This document shows, piece by piece, positions 661 through 14,624 of a DNA stretch of 64,000 nt (position 1 is its first letter; each line of letters begins with the position of its first letter). The DNA is taken from positions 11,106-75,105 of the forward strand of contig DAINRR010000006.1 of NCBI GenBank assembly GCA_036741715.1, given 5' to 3'. The notes beneath the pieces are model-generated. The model did not search any database. It had not been told where the DNA came from and saw only the letters and a list, made by a program, of their open reading frames with translations. Both the position numbers and the translations under genes were made by a program. This DNA is from Gemmatimonadales bacterium (lineage in GTDB: Bacteria > Gemmatimonadota > Gemmatimonadetes > Gemmatimonadales > GWC2-71-9).

Positions 661-3537
<2,877 letters not shown>

Positions 3538-3716
3538 AGCCCCGAAAGGTACCCGAAGCGGGCGGGTTCGCTCAAGGGTCAGGGGCGGGCGGTGTGCGAG
3601 AGAGGGATCGGGTTGGGGAGGACTGGGCACACGAAAACACGAAATGACGAATGGGGGCGGTGGCGGGCAGGGTCCCGATCGATGCTCGGGCATCGCGGTC
3701 GGCTCGGGGTTGCGCT

Positions 3717-3960
3717 GATCGCGAAAGTGCGAAAACGCGAAAGGAACTTCAAAAGCAAGAAATGCCTCCGCTCGAGGCACGGGCCCGGCTCGTCCGGCAG
3801 AGTCTGAAGCGGTTGTCTGTGGGCTCCCTGCACGCCCGGCTCATGGAGCCCGCGGGGAAGCCCACAAACCCCAGACGCTTCTATCCCACTACGGATTCGG
3901 AGCCGGCACGCAAACAGAACCTTTCGCGGTTTTCGCTGTTCTTTCGCGCTTTCGCGATTC
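3717..3960. repeat. Imperfect inverted repeat built from CGCGAAAG units (arms 3717-3747 and 3917-3960) flanking a GC-rich hairpin (3818-3866)
   Basis: Left arm is gatcgcgaaagtgcgaaaacgcgaaaggaac. The reverse complement of the right arm is gaatcgcgaaagcgcgaaagaacagcgaaaaccgcgaaaggttc. The 8-mer CGCGAAAG occurs 2x forward and 3x reverse. Central stem tgtgggctccctgc / gcggggaagcccaca. Confidence 0.5.
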
Positions 3961-4158
3961 ACCCACCGCCTCCCCGCACCTGACGCGCCGCCTGACACCG
4001 TACGCCCCGCCCGTCTTCTTACTTTCGTGTGCCGCCGTCCGGCCTGTCCCCATCGGGATCTCAGCCGAACGCGCGAGGACGGCAAGCCTCCACGCCTGTC
4101 CGCATGGGCGTCGCCCCATTACCATACGCACAGCGAATTATCGGAATCCGGAGTGCGA

Positions 4159-4836
4159 ATGGAACACGAGCGCCGCGATGCGCCCGGCGATCGCCCTGTC
4201 ATCGAAGAAGCCCCTCCCGCCCGGGAGGAGGAACGGCTCGTCCGCGAAGCGCTCGCCGCGTGGGACGCCGGGCGGTACCGCGAGGCGGGCGCGCATTATC
4301 GCACGATCCTCTCACGCGATCCGCGGCAGGTCGAAGCGCGCATCGGGCTCTCGCGCGCGCTCGAGGCCGATGAGCAGCCGGAGGCGGCCATCGCCACGCT
4401 GACCGAGGCGATCGAGCTGGCACCCGACCAGACCGAATTCCTCGTCGAGCGGGGCAGCGTCCTCGGTCGGCTCCGCCGCTTTCCCGAGGCGGAAGCCGAC
4501 CTGCGACGAGTGCTGAAGCTGCATCCCGCGCACGGGCCGGCGCTGCACGAGCTCGGGCTGCTGCTGCTCAAGAAGGGCCTGGCCGCGCCCGCCGCCGAGA
4601 TGCTGCAGCGCGCGGCCGCACTGCAGCCGGGGCGCCCCGATGCCTATCTTCACCTCGGCGACGCGCTCAATCGCGCCGGCGACCTGCGCGGCGCCGTCAC
4701 GGCGCTCGAGCGGGCGCTGGAGCTCGATCCCTCACATCGTCACACATACAATGTTCTCGGGCGTGTTCTCGACCGGCTCGGCAGGCCGACCGAGGCGGAA
4801 GCGCTCTACCGGCGGGCACAGGAACTCGATTCGTGA
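4159..4836 (+). CDS. Tetratricopeptide (TPR) repeat protein
   Basis: ORF 4027..4836 trimmed to ATG 4159 preceded by GGAG. Several 34-aa TPR-like units (AGAHYRTILSRDPRQVEARIGLSRALE; AEADLRRVLKLHPAHGPALHELGLLLLKKG; DAYLHLGDALNRAGDLRGAVTALERALELDP; TYNVLGRVLDRLGRPTEAEALYRRAQELD). Confidence 0.8.
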   Translation: MEHERRDAPGDRPVIEEAPPAREEERLVREALAAWDAGRYREAGAHYRTILSRDPRQVEARIGLSRALEADEQPEAAIATLTEAIELAPDQTEFLVERGSVLGRLRRFPEAEADLRRVLKLHPAHGPALHELGLLLLKKGLAAPAAEMLQRAAALQPGRPDAYLHLGDALNRAGDLRGAVTALERALELDPSHRHTYNVLGRVLDRLGRPTEAEALYRRAQELDS

Positions 4837-5327
4837 TCCAGGCCGTCGTCGATGATCTCGCCTTTCTCGAGGCGGAAGCCGTGCTGCGCCCGGCCGACGC
4901 GTCCCTCGAGCCGGTGACCGCCTCCGCCGTACGGCTCGACCGGCAGGCGGGACCGGCCTTTGCGGCGCAGCGCCGCGTGTCGACCCCGCTCGAGGCCGGC
5001 GCCGCCGTGATCACCGGGGCCGGCGACCTCGCTGCCGACTACGTGCTCCACGTCATCATCCAGGATCCCGAGACGCTCACCACCCGCGAGACGGTGCGCC
5101 GGGCGCTCGTCAGTGCCTGGGAGCGCTGCGCCGAGTGGGGCATCCATACCGTGGCGTCGGCGCCCGTCGGCGCCGGTGCCGGACTGCTCGATATCGAGGA
5201 AGCGGCCGAGCTGATGGCGGCCACGTTCCCGCCGGCGGCGGCCTGCCCGGCCTCGCTCACGATCGTGCTCGAGCGCGAGGAAGACCGTGCGATGGTGGAG
5301 GCCGTGCTGCGGCGCCGCGGCGGATGA
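4833..5327 (+). CDS. Macro-domain-like protein (divergent, tentative)
   Basis: GTG start overlaps the TPR stop (GTGA). About 164 aa with macro-like layout (AAVITGAGDLAADYVLHVI; IHTVASAPVGAGAGLLDIEEAA). The canonical NAAN/GGG ADP-ribose contacts are not recognisable. Confidence 0.55.
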   Translation: MIQAVVDDLAFLEAEAVLRPADASLEPVTASAVRLDRQAGPAFAAQRRVSTPLEAGAAVITGAGDLAADYVLHVIIQDPETLTTRETVRRALVSAWERCAEWGIHTVASAPVGAGAGLLDIEEAAELMAATFPPAAACPASLTIVLEREEDRAMVEAVLRRRGG

Positions 5328-6694
5328 AACCGCGGAAGCTGCACGTTGCGGGCGCGCTCATCATCCTCGCGTGGCTGGCCTCGCTCGGCTGGCTCGTGCG
5401 ACGGGAATATTTCGGCGGCACGCCGGGCGACGTGGCCGCGTCGGCGCGAGTGACGCCGGGTGCCGTCTTCTTTGCGGTCTACCTCAACGATCGTCAGATC
5501 GGCACGGGCGCGACGACGGTCGATACGTTGAGCGACGGCGTCCGCATCTCCGGCCGCACCGACGTGCTCCTTCCCGACGGGAGCGCCTCACGCCGCATTC
5601 GTACGGCCAGCGAAGTCCGCCTGGCGCCCTCGCTCGCACTCACCTCGTTCCGGCACGGCGTGACCGGCGACGCCCCCGACGTGGTCGTGCTCGCGCAGCG
5701 GGTCGACGGCAGCCTCCGCGTGTCACTCGAGTGGCCGGGCCGCGCCGCCGCATCGCGCCCCGCCCCATCCCATGCGCTGCCCGAGATTGCCCTGCCCGTC
5801 AGGATCGTCGCGGATGGACCTCTCGAGGAGGGCCGGCGAGTCGAGGTGCCGCTCATCGAGCCGCTCTCCGGCGCCGTACGTCAGGCGAGCTTCCTCATCG
5901 GCGCGCCCGTGCAATTCGTGGTACCGGACAGCGCCATGCTCGACTCGAACCGGCGACTCTGGGTACCTGCGCACATGGACTCGGTGGTAGCGTGGAGCGT
6001 CACCGAGGAGGGCAGCACGGTGAACGCGCGGATGTGGATCGACCAGCAGGGCTTCGTCGTGCGGGCGGAGACGCCGCAGGGATGGACGATCGTCCGGACC
6101 GCCTTCGAGATCGCGCAGCTCAATCTGCGCGCGGGCCGGGGCGGCCGCATGCCGACTCCGCCATTGAGCCTCGGGGATCTTCGATTCGCGGAATACCCTG
6201 CCGACGTCCAGCCCGGCGATACCGCCCCTGGCCCGCTCGTGCCTTCGGATGCGGTCGCGATCGATTCGGTGGCTGCCAGGCTCGCACCGGATACGCTCGC
6301 CGGCGAGGCTCGGGCGCGCGCCCTCTTCGACTACGTCGCACGGCGGATCGCCGCGGGTGACGGTCCCCCGGACGCCGAAGCCGCGCTGCGGACCCGGCGC
6401 GGGTCCGCGGTGTCGCGGGCACTGCTCCTGACCGCGCTTGTACGCGCCGCCGGTATTCCCGCTCGCAGCGTGAGCGGCGCGCGTTTTGCCGACGGCGTGT
6501 GGCGGCCCGACGCCTGGGTGTCGGTGTACCTGGGCGAATGGATCGACGTGGACCCGGCGCGCCGGGCCTGGCCCGCCGATTCCCTGCGGTTCCCCGTCCA
6601 GCGCGATGGCGGAGGACACCCGCTCGAGGTCCTGGCCCCCGCAGCCCGGCTCACCCGGCCGCGGTTTCCCGACTCCCCCGGCAGAACGCCATGA
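5324..6694 (+). CDS. Membrane-anchored transglutaminase-like domain protein with degenerate catalytic triad
   Basis: ORF 5135..6694 trimmed to ATG 5324, which overlaps the upstream stop (ATGA). N-terminal TM helix HVAGALIILAWLASLGWLV. C-terminal transglutaminase-core pattern RRGSAVSRALLLTALVRAAGIPARSVSG...PDAWVSVYLGEWIDVDPA. Confidence 0.75.
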   Translation: MKPRKLHVAGALIILAWLASLGWLVRREYFGGTPGDVAASARVTPGAVFFAVYLNDRQIGTGATTVDTLSDGVRISGRTDVLLPDGSASRRIRTASEVRLAPSLALTSFRHGVTGDAPDVVVLAQRVDGSLRVSLEWPGRAAASRPAPSHALPEIALPVRIVADGPLEEGRRVEVPLIEPLSGAVRQASFLIGAPVQFVVPDSAMLDSNRRLWVPAHMDSVVAWSVTEEGSTVNARMWIDQQGFVVRAETPQGWTIVRTAFEIAQLNLRAGRGGRMPTPPLSLGDLRFAEYPADVQPGDTAPGPLVPSDAVAIDSVAARLAPDTLAGEARARALFDYVARRIAAGDGPPDAEAALRTRRGSAVSRALLLTALVRAAGIPARSVSGARFADGVWRPDAWVSVYLGEWIDVDPARRAWPADSLRFPVQRDGGGHPLEVLAPAARLTRPRFPDSPGRTP

Positions 6695-7449
6695 TCGAAG
6701 TCATCGACCTGGTCAAGCGATACGGTTCGTTCACCGCGGTGGACTCGCTCTCGCTCACCGTCCCTCGCGGAACGCTGTTCGGCTTCCTCGGCCCCAACGG
6801 CGCCGGGAAGACGACCACGATGCGGATGATCGCCCAGATTCTGCGGCCCACGTCGGGCGAGATCCGCATCGCCGGCCGCCCCACCTGGGACCAGCCGCAG
6901 GCGATCAAGTCCATCATCGGCTATATCCCCGACCGCCCGTTCGTCTACGACAAGCTGACGGGTGCGGAGTTCGTCCGGTTCGTGGCCGCACTCTACGGCC
7001 AGTCGGGTCCGGCGCTCGACCGGCGCATGCTCGAGCTGCTCGAGCTCTTCGAGCTGACACCATGGAAGGATGAGCTCACCGAGTCGTACAGTCACGGCAT
7101 GCGGCAGAAGCTGATCATCGCGAGCGCCTTCGCCCACCGGCCCGAGGTCATCGTGGTGGACGAGCCGATGGTCGGCCTCGATCCCAAGAGCGCTCGGCTC
7201 CTCAAGGATCTCTTCCGGCAGTTCGTCGATCGCGGGGGCACCGTCCTGATGAGCACCCATACCCTCGAGATCGCCGAGGGGATGTGCGACCGGATCGGCA
7301 TCATCCAGGGCGGGCGCCTCATCGCCGAGGGCACGATGGACGAGCTGCGGTCGCAGTCCGCCTCGGGCGACGAGAGCCTCGAGGAGCTCTTCCTCCGGCT
7401 CACGGGTGGCCTCCGTCCCAACGCGCTCGACTCGATCTTCGATGCATGA
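6691..7449 (+). CDS. ABC transporter ATP-binding protein
   Basis: ORF 6499..7449 trimmed to ATG 6691 (ATGA overlap). Walker A GPNGAGKTT, signature YSHGMRQK, Walker B IIVVDEP, H-loop MSTHT. Confidence 0.9.
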   Translation: MIEVIDLVKRYGSFTAVDSLSLTVPRGTLFGFLGPNGAGKTTTMRMIAQILRPTSGEIRIAGRPTWDQPQAIKSIIGYIPDRPFVYDKLTGAEFVRFVAALYGQSGPALDRRMLELLELFELTPWKDELTESYSHGMRQKLIIASAFAHRPEVIVVDEPMVGLDPKSARLLKDLFRQFVDRGGTVLMSTHTLEIAEGMCDRIGIIQGGRLIAEGTMDELRSQSASGDESLEELFLRLTGGLRPNALDSIFDA

Positions 7450-9157
7450 CGTGATTCCCGCGACCGCGCCCCGGCAGCCGGGGCTCGGTGCGGTGCTCGC
7501 GCCCAAGTGGCGAAGCGCGCTCGCGCGGGCGCGCACCACGCAGCGCGGCCGCGGCGCACGGCTGGTGCTGCTGCTCGGCGTCGGCGGCCTCTTCTGGACG
7601 GCGGCCTTCGGGATCAGCTACCGCGTGCTCCGGTACATCAGCGTCCAGCAGGACATCGGCTTCCTGATCGCCTCGAAGATGCTGGGCGTCATCCTCCTCG
7701 CCTTCGCGGCCATCCTGCTCCTGTCGAACCTCATCACCGCGCTCTCCAGCTTCTTCCTCGCGAAGGATCTCGACCTGCTCGTGGCGGCGCCGCTCCACTG
7801 GTTCCGCCTCTACGTCGCCAAGCTGTTCGAGACCGCGGCGCATTCGAGCTGGATGGTGGTGCTGATCGCCCTGCCGATCCTCACGGCATACGGCATCGTG
7901 TACGACGGCGGCGTCCTGTTCCCGTTCGTGGCGCTCGCCGCGCTGATCCCGTTCGTCATCCTGCCCGCCGTCATCGGCTCCGCGATCACGCTCGTCCTGG
8001 TGAACGTCTTCCCCGCCCGCCGCGCGCGGGACCTGCTGAGCCTCGTGGCGATCGGCGCCGTCGGCGGGCTCGTGCTGATGCTTCGCGTGATGCGGCCCGA
8101 GCAGCTCGTCCGGCCGGAGGGCTTCGCGAGCCTGGTCGAGTTCCTGGCGGTCCTTCGCGCGCCGACCAATCCGTTCCTGCCGACGGAATGGGTGGCCGAC
8201 ATGATCATGAACTGGCTGCGGCACGTGGCCGATCCGTTGCCGATCACGCTGCTCTACACCACCGCCGCGGCGTTCGTGATCATGGGCGGGTGGCTGCATG
8301 GGCGGCTCTTCCGCGAAGGGTACAGCAAGTCGCAGGAGGGGGCCGAGCGGTTCGTCCGGGGCCGCAGACTCGGCGCTGCCGCAGGCTGGCTGCTGGCCGG
8401 CGTTCCGGCCGAGCGGCGCGAGTTCCTCCTCAAGGACCTCCGGCTCTTCTTCCGCGATCCGACCCAGTGGAGCCAGCTCATCCTCCTCGGCGTGCTGGTG
8501 GTGGTCTACCTCTTCAACATCCGGTCGCTCCCGCTCTTCTCGGGCGAGCGGGTGCCGTTCTTCCTGATCACGGTCATCGTCTTCCTGAATCTCGGCCTCG
8601 CGGGATTCGTGCTGTCGGCGATCGCGGCGCGCTTCGTCTTTCCGGCCGTGTCGCTCGAGGGCCGGCAGATGTGGCTCATTCATTCGAGCCCGCTGAAATT
8701 CAGCTCCCTCCTCTGGAGCAAGTACTGGCTCGGCACGCTGCCGCTCCTCCTCCTCGCCGTGTTCATCACCGTCGCGACCAACCTCCTGCTCGAAGCGTCC
8801 GGCTTCATGATGGCGGTCAGCGTGGCGACGCTCATGCTCTTCACGTTCGCCGCGAGCGCGATGGCCCTCTGCTTCGGGACGTACTACCCGAAGTTCGACA
8901 CGGAGAACGCCGCGCAGATTCCCACGAGCTTCGGCGGGCTCGTCTTCATGATGAGCGCGATCACGCTGCTCGGGCTCGTGATCGCGATCGAGGCCGTGCC
9001 GGTCAGCTCCTACCTGCGCGCGCGGCAGAGCGGTGAACCGCTCGGGTTCTCCGCCGAGCTGCTCGTGGCGGGCGCGCTGGTGATCGGTCTCTGCGTATCG
9101 GCGACCGTGATCTCCCTCCGCCTCGCCGTGCGAAAGCTCGATACGCTCGAATCGTAG
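7442..9157 (+). CDS. Large polytopic ABC-exporter permease (putative ABC exporter family)
   Basis: ORF 7406..9157 trimmed to ATG 7442, giving an 8-nt overlap with the ATPase stop. About 570 aa with 10 or more hydrophobic helices throughout. Confidence 0.8.
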   Translation: MHDVIPATAPRQPGLGAVLAPKWRSALARARTTQRGRGARLVLLLGVGGLFWTAAFGISYRVLRYISVQQDIGFLIASKMLGVILLAFAAILLLSNLITALSSFFLAKDLDLLVAAPLHWFRLYVAKLFETAAHSSWMVVLIALPILTAYGIVYDGGVLFPFVALAALIPFVILPAVIGSAITLVLVNVFPARRARDLLSLVAIGAVGGLVLMLRVMRPEQLVRPEGFASLVEFLAVLRAPTNPFLPTEWVADMIMNWLRHVADPLPITLLYTTAAAFVIMGGWLHGRLFREGYSKSQEGAERFVRGRRLGAAAGWLLAGVPAERREFLLKDLRLFFRDPTQWSQLILLGVLVVVYLFNIRSLPLFSGERVPFFLITVIVFLNLGLAGFVLSAIAARFVFPAVSLEGRQMWLIHSSPLKFSSLLWSKYWLGTLPLLLLAVFITVATNLLLEASGFMMAVSVATLMLFTFAASAMALCFGTYYPKFDTENAAQIPTSFGGLVFMMSAITLLGLVIAIEAVPVSSYLRARQSGEPLGFSAELLVAGALVIGLCVSATVISLRLAVRKLDTLES

Positions 9158-9286
9158 CGCGCCGTAGCCGCGCCTTTTTCCTCACCGACATGCGTAGCGA
9201 TGGTGCCGGTCCGGCGAGCTCGATCGCCGACCTTGGGGCCGCTGTACCGCCATCCCACCCGGGAGGCGGCCACCCAAGGAGGCCCC

Positions 9287-10465
9287 ATGCGTCGCACGCT
9301 CACGCTGCTGTTTCTCATCCTCGGCGCCGCCTGCGCCGGAGACATGCCGACCACCGAAAGCGAGCTGAGCCTCGCATCCGCCCGCTCCGACCACGCACGC
9401 GAGGCGCTCGCGCGCCGGTTCGCGCGCGCCCTCGCCGAACCCGCCTTCCGTTCGGCAGTGGGAACCGCGCTCGGCGCGTCCCGCCATCCGGAAGGCAAGA
9501 TCCATGTGGGTCGCTTTCTCCGTGCGGATGGCGGGCGCGCGGCCCGCGCCCTCGGCGCCGATGCTGCCGAGCTCGCCCGTGCCGAAGGGCTCGAGGCGTA
9601 CTTCCCGGTGCCGGCGCATCGCGCGGCATGGCAGGGCGGAGCCGATCTCCTCGTCGGGACGATCGGCGCGGACGCCGATCAGCCCGTCGGGTTCGACATG
9701 CGGGGTCAGCGCATCGCGCTCGACCCGAAGGCACCCCCGGTGGCTCCCGTGCTCGCGGTGGTGCCGGTGGAAACCGATTTCGGGCCGGAAGGGGGCGGGC
9801 TCAGCGCGGCCGAGATGTGCGCAGGATGTGACGACGGCGAGGGTGGCGTCGGGTCCGGCGGGGGCGGCTCGTCGATCACGCCGGGCCTGTACCTTCGCAC
9901 GAGTCACCTCAGGGAGAGCTTCGAGTCCTGGCTCAAGGGCAGCCCGGAAATCGAGATCCTCGTGCTCGGGCAGAAAGGCGCCACGGATTCCCTCACGAAG
10001 TACCAGTGCGCCGGCAACTTCGCCCCGGGGGCCTATTATTTCGACCAGAACTCGCTCGACTGGAGCGGCACCGCGCTCATCATGTCGCAGGCACAGCTCG
10101 ACGCATACAATGCCCAGCACCCGGGTCAGGCCGTCCGCCTCTTCTTCATGGAGGACGACGACACATCGTGCGAGGTCCGCGCGAACAACACCGACCTCCG
10201 CCAGCTGCTCACCAGCGTGGACTCGCTCGTCAAGGGATTGTCCGGCGGGCACGCCGAAGAGTCGGCGACGGGAAGGGCCTTCCGCTATTTCAAGGCCGCG
10301 CAGAAGATCCTCAGCGTCGTGGCTTCCGCCATCAGGACCAATGACGACCTGATCGGCAACGCCGTCGAGGACGTGACCACCACCGAGCGGTATGCGGGCT
10401 ACAACTGGATCATCAAGGGAGCGGACGGCAGGACCAATGGGTACGTGAAGCTCGAAATGCGGTGA
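9287..10465 (+). CDS. Hypothetical lipoprotein
   Basis: ORF 9200..10465 trimmed to ATG 9287 preceded by AGGAGG. Lipobox LFLILGAAC. No family recognised. Confidence 0.7.
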   Translation: MRRTLTLLFLILGAACAGDMPTTESELSLASARSDHAREALARRFARALAEPAFRSAVGTALGASRHPEGKIHVGRFLRADGGRAARALGADAAELARAEGLEAYFPVPAHRAAWQGGADLLVGTIGADADQPVGFDMRGQRIALDPKAPPVAPVLAVVPVETDFGPEGGGLSAAEMCAGCDDGEGGVGSGGGGSSITPGLYLRTSHLRESFESWLKGSPEIEILVLGQKGATDSLTKYQCAGNFAPGAYYFDQNSLDWSGTALIMSQAQLDAYNAQHPGQAVRLFFMEDDDTSCEVRANNTDLRQLLTSVDSLVKGLSGGHAEESATGRAFRYFKAAQKILSVVASAIRTNDDLIGNAVEDVTTTERYAGYNWIIKGADGRTNGYVKLEMR

Positions 10466-11136: not shown

Positions 11137-13509
11137 ATGGCGACCTTGCGTCACAGATCGACCGTTCTCTTCCTCCTGGCCGCGGCTTCGCCGGCAGCGG
11201 CGCAGGAATTCGGTGCCGCCGCCGCCGTTGCGGGCCGGGATGTCATCATCGGCCAGGCGTCGAATCAATATGCGCCGGGCTATGTCTACATTTTCCGCGC
11301 GAACGCGCAGGGTGCGTGGCGCGTCGCGTCCCGATTTGCCGCGCCGGACTCCGCGCGCCATACCGGCTTCGGCCGCCGCATCGCCGTGGACGGCAATACG
11401 ATGCTCATCGCCGAGAGCCCGCTCGACAGCGCCACGGCAGGACGGGTTCACGTGTATGAGCGCAATCAGGCAGGCACCTGGCGACATGCGGGCATGCTGG
11501 CCCCGACCCCGGTTGCCAACGGAGACCGGGTCGGCCGTGGCCTGGCGCTCAAGGGGAATGTCGCGATCATCGGCGCCAGCCGGACCGACAGCATGCGCGG
11601 TGAGGCCTGGGTGTTCCGGAAGCAGGGGAACCAGTGGCGCCAGGAAGCCCGGCTCCGCCCGGCGGACGTAGCGCCCGGCTCGGCCTTCGGCAATACGGTG
11701 GCGTACGACGGCCGCCTGATCGCCGTTGCGGCCCAGCAGGCCGACTCGAACGCCGGGGCGGTGTACATCTTCCGTGACAGCGCGGGGACGTGGAAGCAGG
11801 AGCAGAAGCTCACCATCCCCGTCCAGCCGGCGTTTCGGCCGAATGCGCAGTTCGGGGCGGCGTTGCTCTGGCACGAGGGCATGCTCTACGTCGGCGCCCC
11901 GGGCCTGACCAACGGCATGGGCGCGATCATCCGCTTCACGCACGACTCCGCCAACAACCGCTGGAACCCCGTCGGCGGACTGCTCCCCTTCGACGCCACG
12001 CCCGGTGCGCAGTTCGGCACGACGATGACGATGATGGGGAACGAGCTCTGGGTCGGCGCGCCCTTCCTGGCACAGGGGCGCGGCCGCGTCTTCCGCTACC
12101 TGCGGGACACCTCGGGCGCGTTCACCAGGGCCACGAAGGTCGCGTACGATTCGGCCGACGCGCAGGTCGCATTCGGGGGGGTACTCGCCGGCCAGGGCAA
12201 CCTGGCGGTCGTCGGGATGAGCAACGCGGACTTCGGCGAAGGCCGCGCCTCGATCCTTGCGATCGCATCGAACGGCAGCGTCACTCAGCGGACGGTGAGC
12301 GGCGAAGTCTTCCGGCCGGCGGCCGTCGCAGGACGCGAAGTGAACTGCAGTTCCGGCAAGGCGAGCGAGTTCGGGTGCGAGAAGGTCAACCTTCTCGCGC
12401 TCCTGCCGGTCTCGGCGATGGGAGGCAAGCAGGGCACGCGACTGAACGATGTCTGGGGCTGGACCGATCCGGAAAGCGGCAAGGAGTACGCGATCGTGGG
12501 ACGGTCGGACGGCACGTCGTTCGTCGACGTGTCCAATCCGAATCAGCCGCGCTACCTGGGCGACCTTCCGAAGACCGCGGGCTCACCGTCCGCCGTCTGG
12601 CGGGACATGAAGGTCTACCGCAACCACGTGTACATCGTCGCCGATGGATCCCAGGCGCACGGCATGCAGGTCTTCGACCTCACCCGGCTGCGCCGCATCA
12701 CGGCGCCGCAGACCTTCACGCCCGATTACCACTACACCCGCATCAACAGCGCGCACAACATCGTCATCGATACGGCGTCCGGATTCGCCTATATCGTCGG
12801 GGCGGGGTCCGGAGGCGAGACCTGCGGCGGCGGATTGCATATGGTCAACATCAAGGACCCGAAGAACCCCTCCTTTGCCGGCTGCTTCCAGGACAAGGCG
12901 ACAGGCCAGGCGGGAACGGGCTACTCGCACGACGCACAGTGCACGGTCTATCATGGCCCCGATACGCGCTACACCGGGCGGGAGATCTGCATCGGGGCGA
13001 ACGAGAATGCGATCAGCATCGCCGACGTGACCGACAAGCAGAATCCGGTGGCCGTGGGCCGGGGCACCTACCCGGACGTCGGGTACGCGCACCAGGGCTG
13101 GTTCAGCGACGATCACCGCTACTGGTACCAGGACGACGAGCTCGACGAGCTGCAGGGGAAGACGAAGGGCACGCGCACGATCATCTGGGACCTGCAGAAG
13201 CTCGACGATCCCGTGGTGGTCGGCCAGTACGAGGCGCCGGTCAACGCGAGCGACCACAACCTCTACATCGTCGGCGACCGGATGTACAACTCGAACTACA
13301 CGAGCGGCCTCCGCGTGGTGGACATCAGTGACCGGACCAAGCCGAAGGAAGTCGGTTTCTTCGACACGGTACCGGTCGGTCCGGAAGCCCCGGGCTTCGG
13401 AGGGTCGTGGAGCAACTATCCGTTCTTCAAGAGCGGGACGATCCTCGTCACGAGCGGCAATGAGGGTCTCTTCCTCGTGAAGGACCAGACCACCAACCTG
13501 ACGCCATGA
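11137..13509 (+). CDS. Secreted beta-propeller protein, FG-GAP-like N-terminal half plus choice-of-anchor-B/LVIVD-type C-terminal half
   Basis: ATG preceded by AAGGAG. Signal peptide LFLLAAASPAAAQE. C-terminal half NDVWGWTDPESGKEYAIVGRSDGTSFVDVSNPNQPRYLG...VYRNHVYIVADGSQAHGMQVFDLT...GLRVVDISDRTKPKEVGF. Confidence 0.8.
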   Translation: MATLRHRSTVLFLLAAASPAAAQEFGAAAAVAGRDVIIGQASNQYAPGYVYIFRANAQGAWRVASRFAAPDSARHTGFGRRIAVDGNTMLIAESPLDSATAGRVHVYERNQAGTWRHAGMLAPTPVANGDRVGRGLALKGNVAIIGASRTDSMRGEAWVFRKQGNQWRQEARLRPADVAPGSAFGNTVAYDGRLIAVAAQQADSNAGAVYIFRDSAGTWKQEQKLTIPVQPAFRPNAQFGAALLWHEGMLYVGAPGLTNGMGAIIRFTHDSANNRWNPVGGLLPFDATPGAQFGTTMTMMGNELWVGAPFLAQGRGRVFRYLRDTSGAFTRATKVAYDSADAQVAFGGVLAGQGNLAVVGMSNADFGEGRASILAIASNGSVTQRTVSGEVFRPAAVAGREVNCSSGKASEFGCEKVNLLALLPVSAMGGKQGTRLNDVWGWTDPESGKEYAIVGRSDGTSFVDVSNPNQPRYLGDLPKTAGSPSAVWRDMKVYRNHVYIVADGSQAHGMQVFDLTRLRRITAPQTFTPDYHYTRINSAHNIVIDTASGFAYIVGAGSGGETCGGGLHMVNIKDPKNPSFAGCFQDKATGQAGTGYSHDAQCTVYHGPDTRYTGREICIGANENAISIADVTDKQNPVAVGRGTYPDVGYAHQGWFSDDHRYWYQDDELDELQGKTKGTRTIIWDLQKLDDPVVVGQYEAPVNASDHNLYIVGDRMYNSNYTSGLRVVDISDRTKPKEVGFFDTVPVGPEAPGFGGSWSNYPFFKSGTILVTSGNEGLFLVKDQTTNLTP

Positions 13510-14624
13510 TCCGATCGCTTCGCGCCCTCGTGGCGCTCGCCGTCGGGGCCGCCTGCGCGGCCCCGGGGGCGACGCGCCAGACCCCCACGCCGGCCGGGAC
13601 GGGCGTGGGGGTCCGGCTTTACGTCCCGAATCAGAACGACGCCTCGGTGACCATTCTCGATGCGGCGTCCGGCACCACGCTCACCACCGTCGACCTGCGG
13701 ACAGCGGGCTTCACCGCGAATGCCAAGCCCCACGCGGTCGTCGCCGAGCCCGACGGCTCGGCGTGGTATGTCTCCCTGATCGGTGACAACTTCGTCGCCA
13801 AGTTCGATTCCGCAAACCGGTACGTCGGCCGAGTCCCGATGGAAACGCCGGGGATGCTGGCACTCGACGCGAGGCACGATCGCCTGTACGCGAGCCGGTC
13901 GATGACCGCGGTGAGCCCGCCGGCCAGCATCGGCGTGATCCGCCGGAGCGACATGCGGCTCCTCGAAGAGCTCGACGTCCTCTTCCCTCGACCGCACGCG
14001 ATCGCGGCCGCGACGACCTCGGGACGCGTGTACGTCTCGGGACTCGGCGACAACCGGATCGCGGTGGTGGATACGGCCGGACGTGTCGAACTGGTGCAGG
14101 TCCCGGGTCCACTGCATGCCTATGTGACGTTCGCGCTCTCGCCGGACGGGTCCCGGCTCGCGGCCACGACGCAGCTGACGTCGAGCCTCGTCGGGTTCGA
14201 TGTGCGGACCGGCAGGCCGGTGCCGGCCGCCTCGGTCCAGGTTCTCCCCTTCGGCTATCAGGTGAGCTGGTCGCCGGACGGGCACTCGATCTGGCTCGGC
14301 AACCAGCGGAGCGGGGCCGTCACGATGGTGGATGCCCGGACCTGGGCCGTGCGTGACGTGATCCGCGATTCCGCATTCGCGGAGCCGCATGGGGTCGCGA
14401 TCTCGCGGGACGGTGCCACTGTCTACGTCTCGAGCCACGGCGTTCAGGCCGGCTCGTCGACACCCACCCCGGCCGACACGATGCACGGTGGCATGCACGC
14501 CGGTGAGGGTGCCGCGCGCGGTGGCGGCACGCTCGCGATCATCGATGCCGGTACCCGCACCGTCCGCAGGGTGGTCCGAGTCGGGCGTTACGCCGTGGCC
14601 ATCGATCTCGGCGGGACCCGATGA
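13506..14624 (+). CDS. YVTN/YncE-type beta-propeller repeat protein (secreted)
   Basis: ATGA overlap with the upstream gene. Signal peptide LVALAVGAACAAP. Repeats such as LYVPNQNDASVTILDAASG, VYVSGLGDNRIAVVD, ALSPDGSRLAATT and AISRDGATVYVSS. Confidence 0.8.
   Translation: MIRSLRALVALAVGAACAAPGATRQTPTPAGTGVGVRLYVPNQNDASVTILDAASGTTLTTVDLRTAGFTANAKPHAVVAEPDGSAWYVSLIGDNFVAKFDSANRYVGRVPMETPGMLALDARHDRLYASRSMTAVSPPASIGVIRRSDMRLLEELDVLFPRPHAIAAATTSGRVYVSGLGDNRIAVVDTAGRVELVQVPGPLHAYVTFALSPDGSRLAATTQLTSSLVGFDVRTGRPVPAASVQVLPFGYQVSWSPDGHSIWLGNQRSGAVTMVDARTWAVRDVIRDSAFAEPHGVAISRDGATVYVSSHGVQAGSSTPTPADTMHGGMHAGEGAARGGGTLAIIDAGTRTVRRVVRVGRYAVAIDLGGTR

Follow-up and report, generated by a model that had tools for sequence, protein, structure and literature searches.

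A transglutaminase-like protein, an ABC ATPase and a PF16949 permease encoded as a conserved gene trio in several phyla and extended by TPR and Macro genes in Gemmatimonadales

The window analyzed here, a 64,000-nucleotide (nt) stretch of a Gemmatimonadales genome with a G+C content of ~69%, carries five plus-strand genes at positions 4159-9157 that are chained by overlaps and encode, in order, a tetratricopeptide repeat (TPR) protein of 225 amino acids (aa), a Macro-domain protein (164 aa), a membrane-anchored transglutaminase-like protein (TGL; 456 aa), an ATP-binding cassette (ABC) ATPase (252 aa), and a permease (571 aa). These genes are one operon, as seen from their conserved overlapping junctions and a terminator-like end. 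The unit conserved across several phyla is the TGL-ATPase-permease trio and not the five-gene set, and the TPR and Macro genes are Gemmatimonadales-specific additions. A first-pass annotation of the window had not recognized this combination as a described system, and it still belongs to none that we could find: no NCBIfam equivalog was obtained for any of the five products, a PADLOC search of the five proteins rejected known anti-phage systems, the cluster matches no known transporter family with known accessory proteins, and our literature search returned nothing relevant on PF16949 (ABC_tran_2), on PF09847, or on a combination of transglutaminase-like, macro, and ABC transporter proteins. 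Our tentative reading, to which we give slightly less than an even chance, is that the operon exports or extracts a hydrophobic envelope molecule that is received by a periplasmic partner, with the TPR and Macro proteins as possible regulators. The operon is laid out as follows:

3781..4158, no strand assigned, intergenic region between the divergent uvrA gene (minus strand) and the operon; presumed promoter and 5' leader
4159..4836, plus strand, TPR gene; ATG at 4159, with GGAG at 4150-4153, 5 nt before the ATG
4833..5327, plus strand, Macro gene; GTGA at 4833-4836 is the TPR stop overlapping the Macro start
5324..6694, plus strand, TGL gene; ATGA at 5324-5327 is the Macro stop overlapping the TGL start
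6691..7449, plus strand, ABC ATPase gene; ATGA at 6691-6694 is the TGL stop overlapping the ATPase start
7442..9157, plus strand, permease gene; ATG at 7442 and ATPase stop at 7447-7449, an 8-nt overlap; permease stop at 9155-9157
9157..9182, plus strand, terminator-like hairpin GCGCGCCGTAGCCGCGC (9157-9173) followed by the T run CTTTTTCC; probable operon end

All four overlaps listed in the first-pass annotation are present in the sequence as read over positions 3700-9400, and each of its domain assignments (TPR, macro-like, transglutaminase-fold, ABC ATPase, and permease) was confirmed by Pfam. The starts chosen for the Macro, TGL, ATPase, and permease genes, and for a lipoprotein gene downstream, give proteins identical to public gene products; the TPR start at 4159 has no matching public call, yet it has the best Shine-Dalgarno sequence. 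Public names of related proteins are generic ("ABC-2 type transport system permease protein," "transglutaminase-like domain-containing protein," "hypothetical protein"). Upstream of the operon, no sigma-70 consensus was found and no Rfam riboswitch or leader RNA family reached its gathering score. The region has four terminator-like sites where 2.1 would be expected, so the hairpin at the operon end is only suggestive.

In up to 84 Gemmatimonadota loci, we counted the junctions at which a start codon precedes the upstream stop by exactly 4 nt. This was the case at 43/47 TPR>Macro, 20/30 Macro>TGL, and 40/51 TGL>ATPase junctions, and also where gene loss had created a new junction, namely, at 18/19 Macro>ATPase junctions in loci without TGL and at 11/16 TPR>TGL junctions in loci without Macro. 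A start codon at any one fixed position would be expected in ~5% of cases, and these counts are far above that. The ATPase and permease genes are tightly joined as well, with an overlap in 33 and a gap of 0-20 nt in 41 of 79 loci. The complete pattern of 4, 4, 4, and 8 nt is also found in the public gene calls of relatives whose TGL is only 28-36% identical. That the 4-nt overlaps are conserved, and are rebuilt at junctions that are new after gene loss, argues for selection on translational coupling, in line with the co-translation that had been proposed from the window alone. An obligate five-protein complex, suggested at the same time, is unlikely, since either Macro or TGL can be absent within the order.

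The delimitation of the conserved unit comes from relatives of the permease outside Gemmatimonadales. A HMMER search of 1.84 billion representatives returned permease relatives in 3312 clusters at 50% identity (E ≤1e-3), 885 of them at E ≤1e-30, and full-length relatives at 30-40% identity occur beyond the order. Submitter labels in a second profile search (16 of the permease relatives) named Nitrospirota, Deltaproteobacteria, Betaproteobacteria, Pseudomonadota, and a distinct Gemmatimonadota lineage. Among seven genomic contexts from outside the order, six (L086, L087, L088, L089, L090, and L091) contain TGL, ATPase, and permease genes in that order and at similar sizes (483-528, 242-273, and 561-571 aa, respectively), and the 4-nt TGL/ATPase overlap recurs in L086, L087, and L090. 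Macro and TPR genes are absent from all seven. The window TGL is orthologous over its full length to these partners (hhalign probability 100, E 1e-59 to 1e-64), and the cognate ATPase orthologues score 200-364 bits, versus ≤153 bits for other ABC ATPases in the same loci. Gene order is thus kept far beyond close relatives, the opposite of the outcome that the first-pass annotation had named as refuting its reading, with the qualification that the conserved part is the trio and not the five genes.

The view from the TGL side was obtained from a TGL-seeded metagenome scan, in which 50 loci had enough downstream DNA. The trio is present in 38 of these, with the three genes adjacent in 35 and separated by an insertion in 3; the insertions look unrelated to one another (a SulP-STAS transporter gene twice, and once a restriction-modification pair with an M48 peptidase). 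TPR and Macro genes accompany TGL in only three metagenome loci, all Gemmatimonadales-like; here Macro was called above 50 bits only, as over-long open reading frames (ORFs) in the profile gave spurious 20-30-bit matches inside TGL. All-against-all clustering of the neighbors outside the order revealed no further recurrent gene except SMC, which reflects lineage-level synteny. Two of the outside contexts offer a weak link to the envelope: in L088 (3754-6987), a 157-aa gene of no known identity and the phospholipid transport genes mlaE, mlaF, and mlaD lie between the cognate ATPase and the permease, and in L087, a GldA/F/G-like ABC system with DUF4340 follows the trio. As single cases, locus L118 has an M48 (CAAX/HtpX-like) peptidase gene directly before the cognate ATPase (8362-9603, plus strand) and a canonical Macro-domain gene of 130 bits (12152-12733, minus strand) in convergent orientation just past the permease.

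Within Gemmatimonadota, a permease-alignment scan of species-representative genomes found at least 569 representatives with a permease relative; the scan used order-specific peptide patterns, so only Gemmatimonadota were returned. Across the best 80 Gemmatimonadota species representatives, permease identity to the window protein is 59-96% (nearest, 96%). Gene content was assessed with jackhmmer, using the window proteins over six-frame ORFs, in the 61 loci with enough upstream DNA. Both Macro and TGL are present in 31 of these; 15 have TGL without Macro, and there the TPR gene directly abuts TGL, and another 15 have Macro without TGL, and there the end of Macro is the start of the ATPase gene. 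TPR homologues are found in most Gemmatimonadales loci, with only a few lacking one. No locus of the 61 lacks both Macro and TGL. Independent losses would leave ~3.7 such loci, although the loci are phylogenetically related and the count is therefore no formal test. In some Gemmatimonadota, the operon begins with a CutA1 gene, which precedes the TPR homologue in L003 (6391-6723) and takes its place in L004 (6431-6766).

The C-terminal third of TGL matches PF01841 (Transglut_core; E 3.5e-14, 53.4 bits versus a cut-off of 23), as do all 69 family members checked, that is, the window copy and its 68 closest relatives. In an AlphaFold2 model (mean predicted local distance difference test [pLDDT] score, 92.9), residues 5-30 form a helix, ~46-260 a beta-rich domain, and ~310-445 an alpha/beta core. 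Foldseek relates the beta-rich domain to EipB/DUF1849 (6NTR; E 2e-6, target-normalized TM score of 0.56-0.58), to PA1994 (2H1T), and weakly to RseB, and the core to 3ISR, 9CRN, TglA of Streptococcus pyogenes, and the CPR-C4 protease. Sequence searches of TGL and of the permease against the PDB gave no match. EipB is a periplasmic envelope-integrity protein whose beta-spiral has been described as LolA/LolB-like (bioRxiv 10.1101/551135). The open beta-barrel or beta-spiral of the TGL N-terminal domain resembles that of EipB (DUF1849, 6NTR), PA1994 (DUF1089), and DUF3108 (YmcC fold). These are stand-alone soluble proteins, whereas TGL joins the domain to a membrane anchor and a transglutaminase-like core, and the window TGL reaches none of their Pfam models. 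DUF3108 was not found at Pfam significance in the window copy or its 68 closest relatives; the orthologue in L088 does match it, at 33.4 bits versus a cut-off of 26. The flanks of the membrane helix carry net charges of ~+2.3 on the N-terminal side and ~+0.75 on the C-terminal side. This bias, together with the periplasmic structural relatives, suggests a bitopic protein with its N terminus inside and its bulk in the periplasm.

The description of TGL as a dead transglutaminase in the first-pass annotation holds for the window copy and fails for the family. In the window protein, Ala362 stands in place of the catalytic Cys and Asp396 in place of the His, leaving only Asp410 of the triad; the corresponding motifs are GSAVSR, DAWVS, and WIDVDP, versus GDCNEH, HAWPE (FYYHAWPE), and VDPT in the family. 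Among alignable TGL copies from loci outside the window's own set, the complete Cys-His-Asp triad is present in 79/80, counted by hmmalign to the family profile, with the His, unlike the Cys and Asp, having been part of the seed pattern of the scan. By comparison, the triad is intact in only ~9 of 50 Gemmatimonadota copies: the Cys is replaced in most Gemmatimonadales lineages, and both Cys and His are replaced in the window clade. The window TGL further lacks a ~70-residue segment of the family consensus, at residues 290/291, between the beta-spiral and the transglutaminase core, and the copies in L001 and L002 are even shorter (431 aa). Judged from these sequences, the family looks ancestrally active, and the window lineage looks like a degenerate derivative.

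The ATPase matches ABC_tran (E 8.5e-27, 95 bits) and has a complete Walker A (GPNGAGKTT), Walker B (VIVVDEP), and H-loop (STH), with a non-canonical signature, YSHGM; by its motifs, it is predicted to be a competent nucleotide-binding domain, as a type V ABC exporter would need, and it is placed in the ABC-2/DrrA-like subfamily. Its best NCBIfam match is the drrA subfamily model TIGR01188, at 234.9 bits, below the cut-off of 312.45. The permease matches PF16949 over nearly the whole profile (9-541 of 542; 356.4 bits versus a cut-off of 25.7, E 4e-106), and its AlphaFold2 model is all-helical. The top Foldseek hits of this model are structures of Rv1217c (8K1P and 8K1O; probability 1.0), followed by NosY, ABCG25, ABCG2, and CcmB (probability 0.9-1.0), all of them type V (ABC-2) folds. 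What had been called a giant permease is therefore most likely an ordinary fused pair of type V transmembrane domains with 12 helices. In Rv1217c-Rv1218c, two transmembrane domains in one chain with the type V fold are served by an ATPase homodimer (PMC11406275), and by analogy, a homodimer of the single ATPase would presumably serve the permease here.

Several named transporters were considered for this module and rejected. For a DrrAB-type daunorubicin-resistance transporter, the ATPase is under the cut-off, and the permease is a 12-helix PF16949 protein without an ABC2_membrane match. The gliding-motility transporter GldAFG is excluded by the GldA score (176 bits versus a cut-off of 402.6) and by the lack of GldF or GldG homologues in the operon. 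An FtsEX-type (type VII) system is excluded by the FtsE model (106 bits versus 264.85) and by a permease that has 12 helices, belongs to PF16949, and has type V structural neighbors.

The two proteins added in Gemmatimonadales are predicted to be cytoplasmic because neither has a signal peptide. The TPR protein matches TPR_2, TPR_16, TPR_1, and related Pfam models at ~1e-26 to 1e-28 and falls below the cut-off of every NCBIfam equivalog. The Macro protein is a divergent stand-alone domain (PF01661; E 1.2e-11, 45 bits versus a cut-off of 22), for which the nearest solved structure is TTHA0132 of Thermus thermophilus (2DX6; E 1.3e-14 over 154 aligned residues), a macro domain to which no function has been assigned. 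TTHA0132 is likewise a small stand-alone domain of similar size. It keeps the NAAN motif and a glycine-containing loop 1, whereas the operon protein has RPAD in place of NAAN and PVTASA in place of GAGVAG, so that the Gly-rich loop 1 is lost. Two other elements of the pocket are retained: Asp8 aligns with the adenine-contacting Asp of the GD(I/V)T motif, and loop 2 of the family (GAGAG; G-x-G) is conserved. Since the RPAD and G-x-G-x-G motifs are conserved across 52 Macro orthologues, the substitutions point to a selected non-canonical pocket rather than to decay. A MacroD-type ADP-ribosylhydrolase or O-acetyl-ADP-ribose deacetylase was rejected as an assignment, given the loss of NAAN and of the Gly-rich loop 1 and equivalog scores far below cut-off (best NCBIfam scores of 33-40 bits versus 200-246). 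From these residues, MacroD-type hydrolase activity is unlikely, while binding of a ligand such as ADP-ribose or an adenine nucleotide is plausible.

How these parts could work together is most simply described as a sequence of steps. (i) ATP hydrolysis would power the permease, which would extract or export an envelope component that is hydrophobic or amphipathic, for example, a lipid, a lipopeptide, or a lipoprotein-like molecule. (ii) The permease would pass this cargo to the beta-spiral cup of the membrane-tethered TGL. (iii) In lineages with an intact triad, the transglutaminase-like domain may then process the cargo by cleavage or transamidation, while in the window lineage, TGL, without the Cys, the His, and ~70 aa, could only bind or scaffold. 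(iv) The TPR and Macro proteins would probably bind to the ATPase or regulate it on the cytoplasmic side, with the Macro domain perhaps sensing, and not hydrolyzing, a ligand of the adenine-nucleotide or ADP-ribose type. The strong conservation of the permease, set beside a TGL that evolves fast (identity dropping to 28-36% in relatives), is often dead, and is absent from 15/61 loci, argues that the ABC module has a transport function of its own.

Precedents for this kind of machine exist in LolCDE-LolA and LptB2FG-LptC, in which lipidic molecules extracted from the inner membrane by an ABC machine are handed to a hydrophobic acceptor of beta structure. The single-helix membrane tether of LptC resembles that predicted for TGL, and the likeness to LolA/LolB comes through EipB. 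In contrast, the LolCDE and LptB2FG permeases are of type VII and type VI, respectively, and have no sequence relationship to the operon, and TGL adds an enzyme-like domain.

A bolder version of the export reading would make the trio a previously unrecognized class of envelope machine, in which a type V transporter extracts lipidic cargo from the inner membrane and loads it onto a tethered LolA/EipB-like beta-spiral, and an attached enzyme cuts or cross-links the cargo, with Gemmatimonadales having swapped periplasmic catalysis for cytoplasmic control by a ligand-sensing Macro domain on a TPR scaffold. We regard this larger proposal as unlikely to be correct as a whole, at a level far below that of the basic export reading. 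Such a rewiring, if true, would account for loci in which Macro or TGL has been lost and for the fact that the two are not lost together in any of the 61 loci.

A number of observations weigh against the export reading. The fold matches of the permease are statistically weak (best E 6e-3, TM scores of 0.44-0.50 for Rv1217c), and its model has a pLDDT of only 74.5. The periplasmic location of TGL is suggested by charge bias and structural relatives, and one of these relatives, PA1994, is cytoplasmic (bioRxiv 10.1101/551135). The permease of L085, the seventh context outside the order, has neither TGL nor ATPase nearby, and in the metagenome scan, TGL stood alone in 9/50 loci and with the ATPase only in 3/50; the trio is consequently frequent but not obligate. 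No substrate was identified, and neighbor clustering linked no biosynthetic or precursor gene consistently to the operon. The role given to TPR and Macro is one that we purely infer. Finally, that 0/61 loci lack both is left unexplained by a simple division into a periplasmic and a cytoplasmic accessory.

The first alternative is that nothing is translocated at all and that the movements of the ABC-2 module switch a periplasmic TGL enzyme on and off, by the logic of FtsEX with PcsB, RipC, or EnvC, of NosFY-NosD, and of CcmAB-CcmE. NosY and CcmB are indeed among the structural neighbors of the permease model, the papain-fold domain of TGL has an intact triad in most lineages outside the order, and TGL and ATPase form the most tightly coupled pair, down to the 4-nt overlap kept in three of the outside contexts. 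The hydrolases governed by FtsEX, with CHAP or NlpC/P60 domains, are also papain-like. FtsEX with PcsB, RipC, CwlO, or EnvC is a precedent for an ABC module coupled, both genetically and physically, to an extracytoplasmic papain-fold hydrolase or its activator; the operon likewise pairs an ABC module with a papain-fold TGL. However, FtsX is a type VII protein with 4 helices and a large periplasmic domain, and the permease is not of its family; the FtsEX partners are secreted peptidoglycan hydrolases and not a bitopic protein with a beta-spiral and a transglutaminase-like core. NosDFY(L) and CcmAB(CD), in which NosY and CcmB are ABC-2 transmembrane domains, are precedents for a type V module with a dedicated extracytoplasmic partner. 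Their partners are nevertheless unrelated to TGL (NosD is a beta-helix; the others are CcmC, CcmD, and CcmE), their permeases are separate and half-size, and copper/sulfur delivery and heme handling have no counterpart in the operon. A difficulty is that most Gemmatimonadales lineages have a dead enzyme and a quarter have none, and the permease and ATPase are still highly conserved; at least in this order, the task of the ABC module must be independent of TGL catalysis. We consider a purely mechanical switch unlikely.

Slightly less probable than a switch is that the operon encodes a conventional ABC-2 pump, like DrrAB or Rv1217c-Rv1218c, that removes drugs or toxic metabolites, with the neighboring genes as functionally loose passengers of a syntenic housekeeping region. 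The best NCBIfam match of the ATPase is to the DrrA subfamily, and the closest solved fold of the permease is that of a rifampicin-resistance pump. Rv1217c-Rv1218c of Mycobacterium tuberculosis (8K1M to 8K1P) also consists of a single 12-helix chain and a separately encoded ATPase, and its signature motif is non-canonical as well (YSKGN there, YSHGM here). Moreover, since the neighborhood of the operon (uvrA upstream, ccm downstream) is syntenic in the order, adjacency is weak evidence there. On the other hand, the DrrA score lies under the family cut-off of 312, and Rv1217c has no detectable sequence similarity to the permease (no PDB sequence match), belongs to another Pfam family, lacks partners of the TGL, Macro, or TPR kind, and forms part of what is described as a drug efflux pump. 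The passenger idea is hard to reconcile with start-stop overlaps that are conserved and rebuilt after deletions, or with a TGL linkage that persists in other phyla amid entirely different surrounding genes. Presence in at least 569 species representatives fits a housekeeping role and not a resistance island.

We think it improbable that the operon serves peptide export and processing, with TGL as a separate leader peptidase or cross-linking enzyme comparable to the C39 domains of bacteriocin ABC exporters. The papain-like Cys-His-Asp domain of TGL is intact in most lineages, and TglA and the CPR-C4 protease are among its structural neighbors. Against this, no gene for a precursor peptide or for its modification recurs in the vicinity; C39 domains are cytoplasmic, whereas TGL is predicted to lie on the periplasmic side; C39 exporters have a type IV fold, whereas the permease most likely has a type V fold; and the window TGL lacks the nucleophile. 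An anti-phage or stress-defense module combining Macro, TPR, and an ABC-type ATPase is highly improbable: Macro domains and ABC-like ATPases do occur in defense systems, and the ATPase gives weak PADLOC matches to mad3 and AriA, but these are generic P-loop similarity, the other four proteins match nothing, and the fixed core-genome position beside uvrA across the order is unlike a variable defense island.

ABC transporters with dedicated extracytoplasmic partners are well known; a TGL partner and its Macro-TPR extension are not described. Once the cargo is defined, bacterial envelope biogenesis or export would gain a component from soil and sediment phyla that have been little studied. Gemmatimonadales also offer a natural series within one order, from an intact enzyme through loss of the Cys, then of both Cys and His, to loss of the gene, and this decay series is a comparative handle on what the periplasmic partner contributes. 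The Macro protein, for its part, places a conserved non-canonical pocket beside an ABC ATPase, a context for which we found no described case.

Two neighboring genes in the window recur with the operon in the order:

661-3780, minus strand, uvrA, divergent upstream neighbor of the operon
9287..10465, plus strand, predicted lipoprotein of 392 aa (MRRTLTLLFLILGAAC...), 130 nt past the permease and beyond the terminator-like hairpin

uvrA is the divergent neighbor in nearly all Gemmatimonadales loci, and ccmE, ccmF, and ccmH are often downstream. The region is thus a conserved core-genome block, and adjacency inside the order is accordingly weak evidence of function. The lipoprotein has no Pfam match, and its homologues are absent from the loci outside the order. 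Of ~65 Gemmatimonadales loci with enough DNA, 52 have a homologue on the same strand past the permease, and the protein is possibly a sixth component or just a case of synteny. Further along the plus strand of the window, a gene at 11137-13509 encodes a 790-aa protein that has a signal peptide as well as FG-GAP and LVIVD repeats; this gene is joined by a 4-nt ATGA overlap to a gene at 13506-14624 for a 372-aa beta-propeller protein (NHL/lactonase-like).

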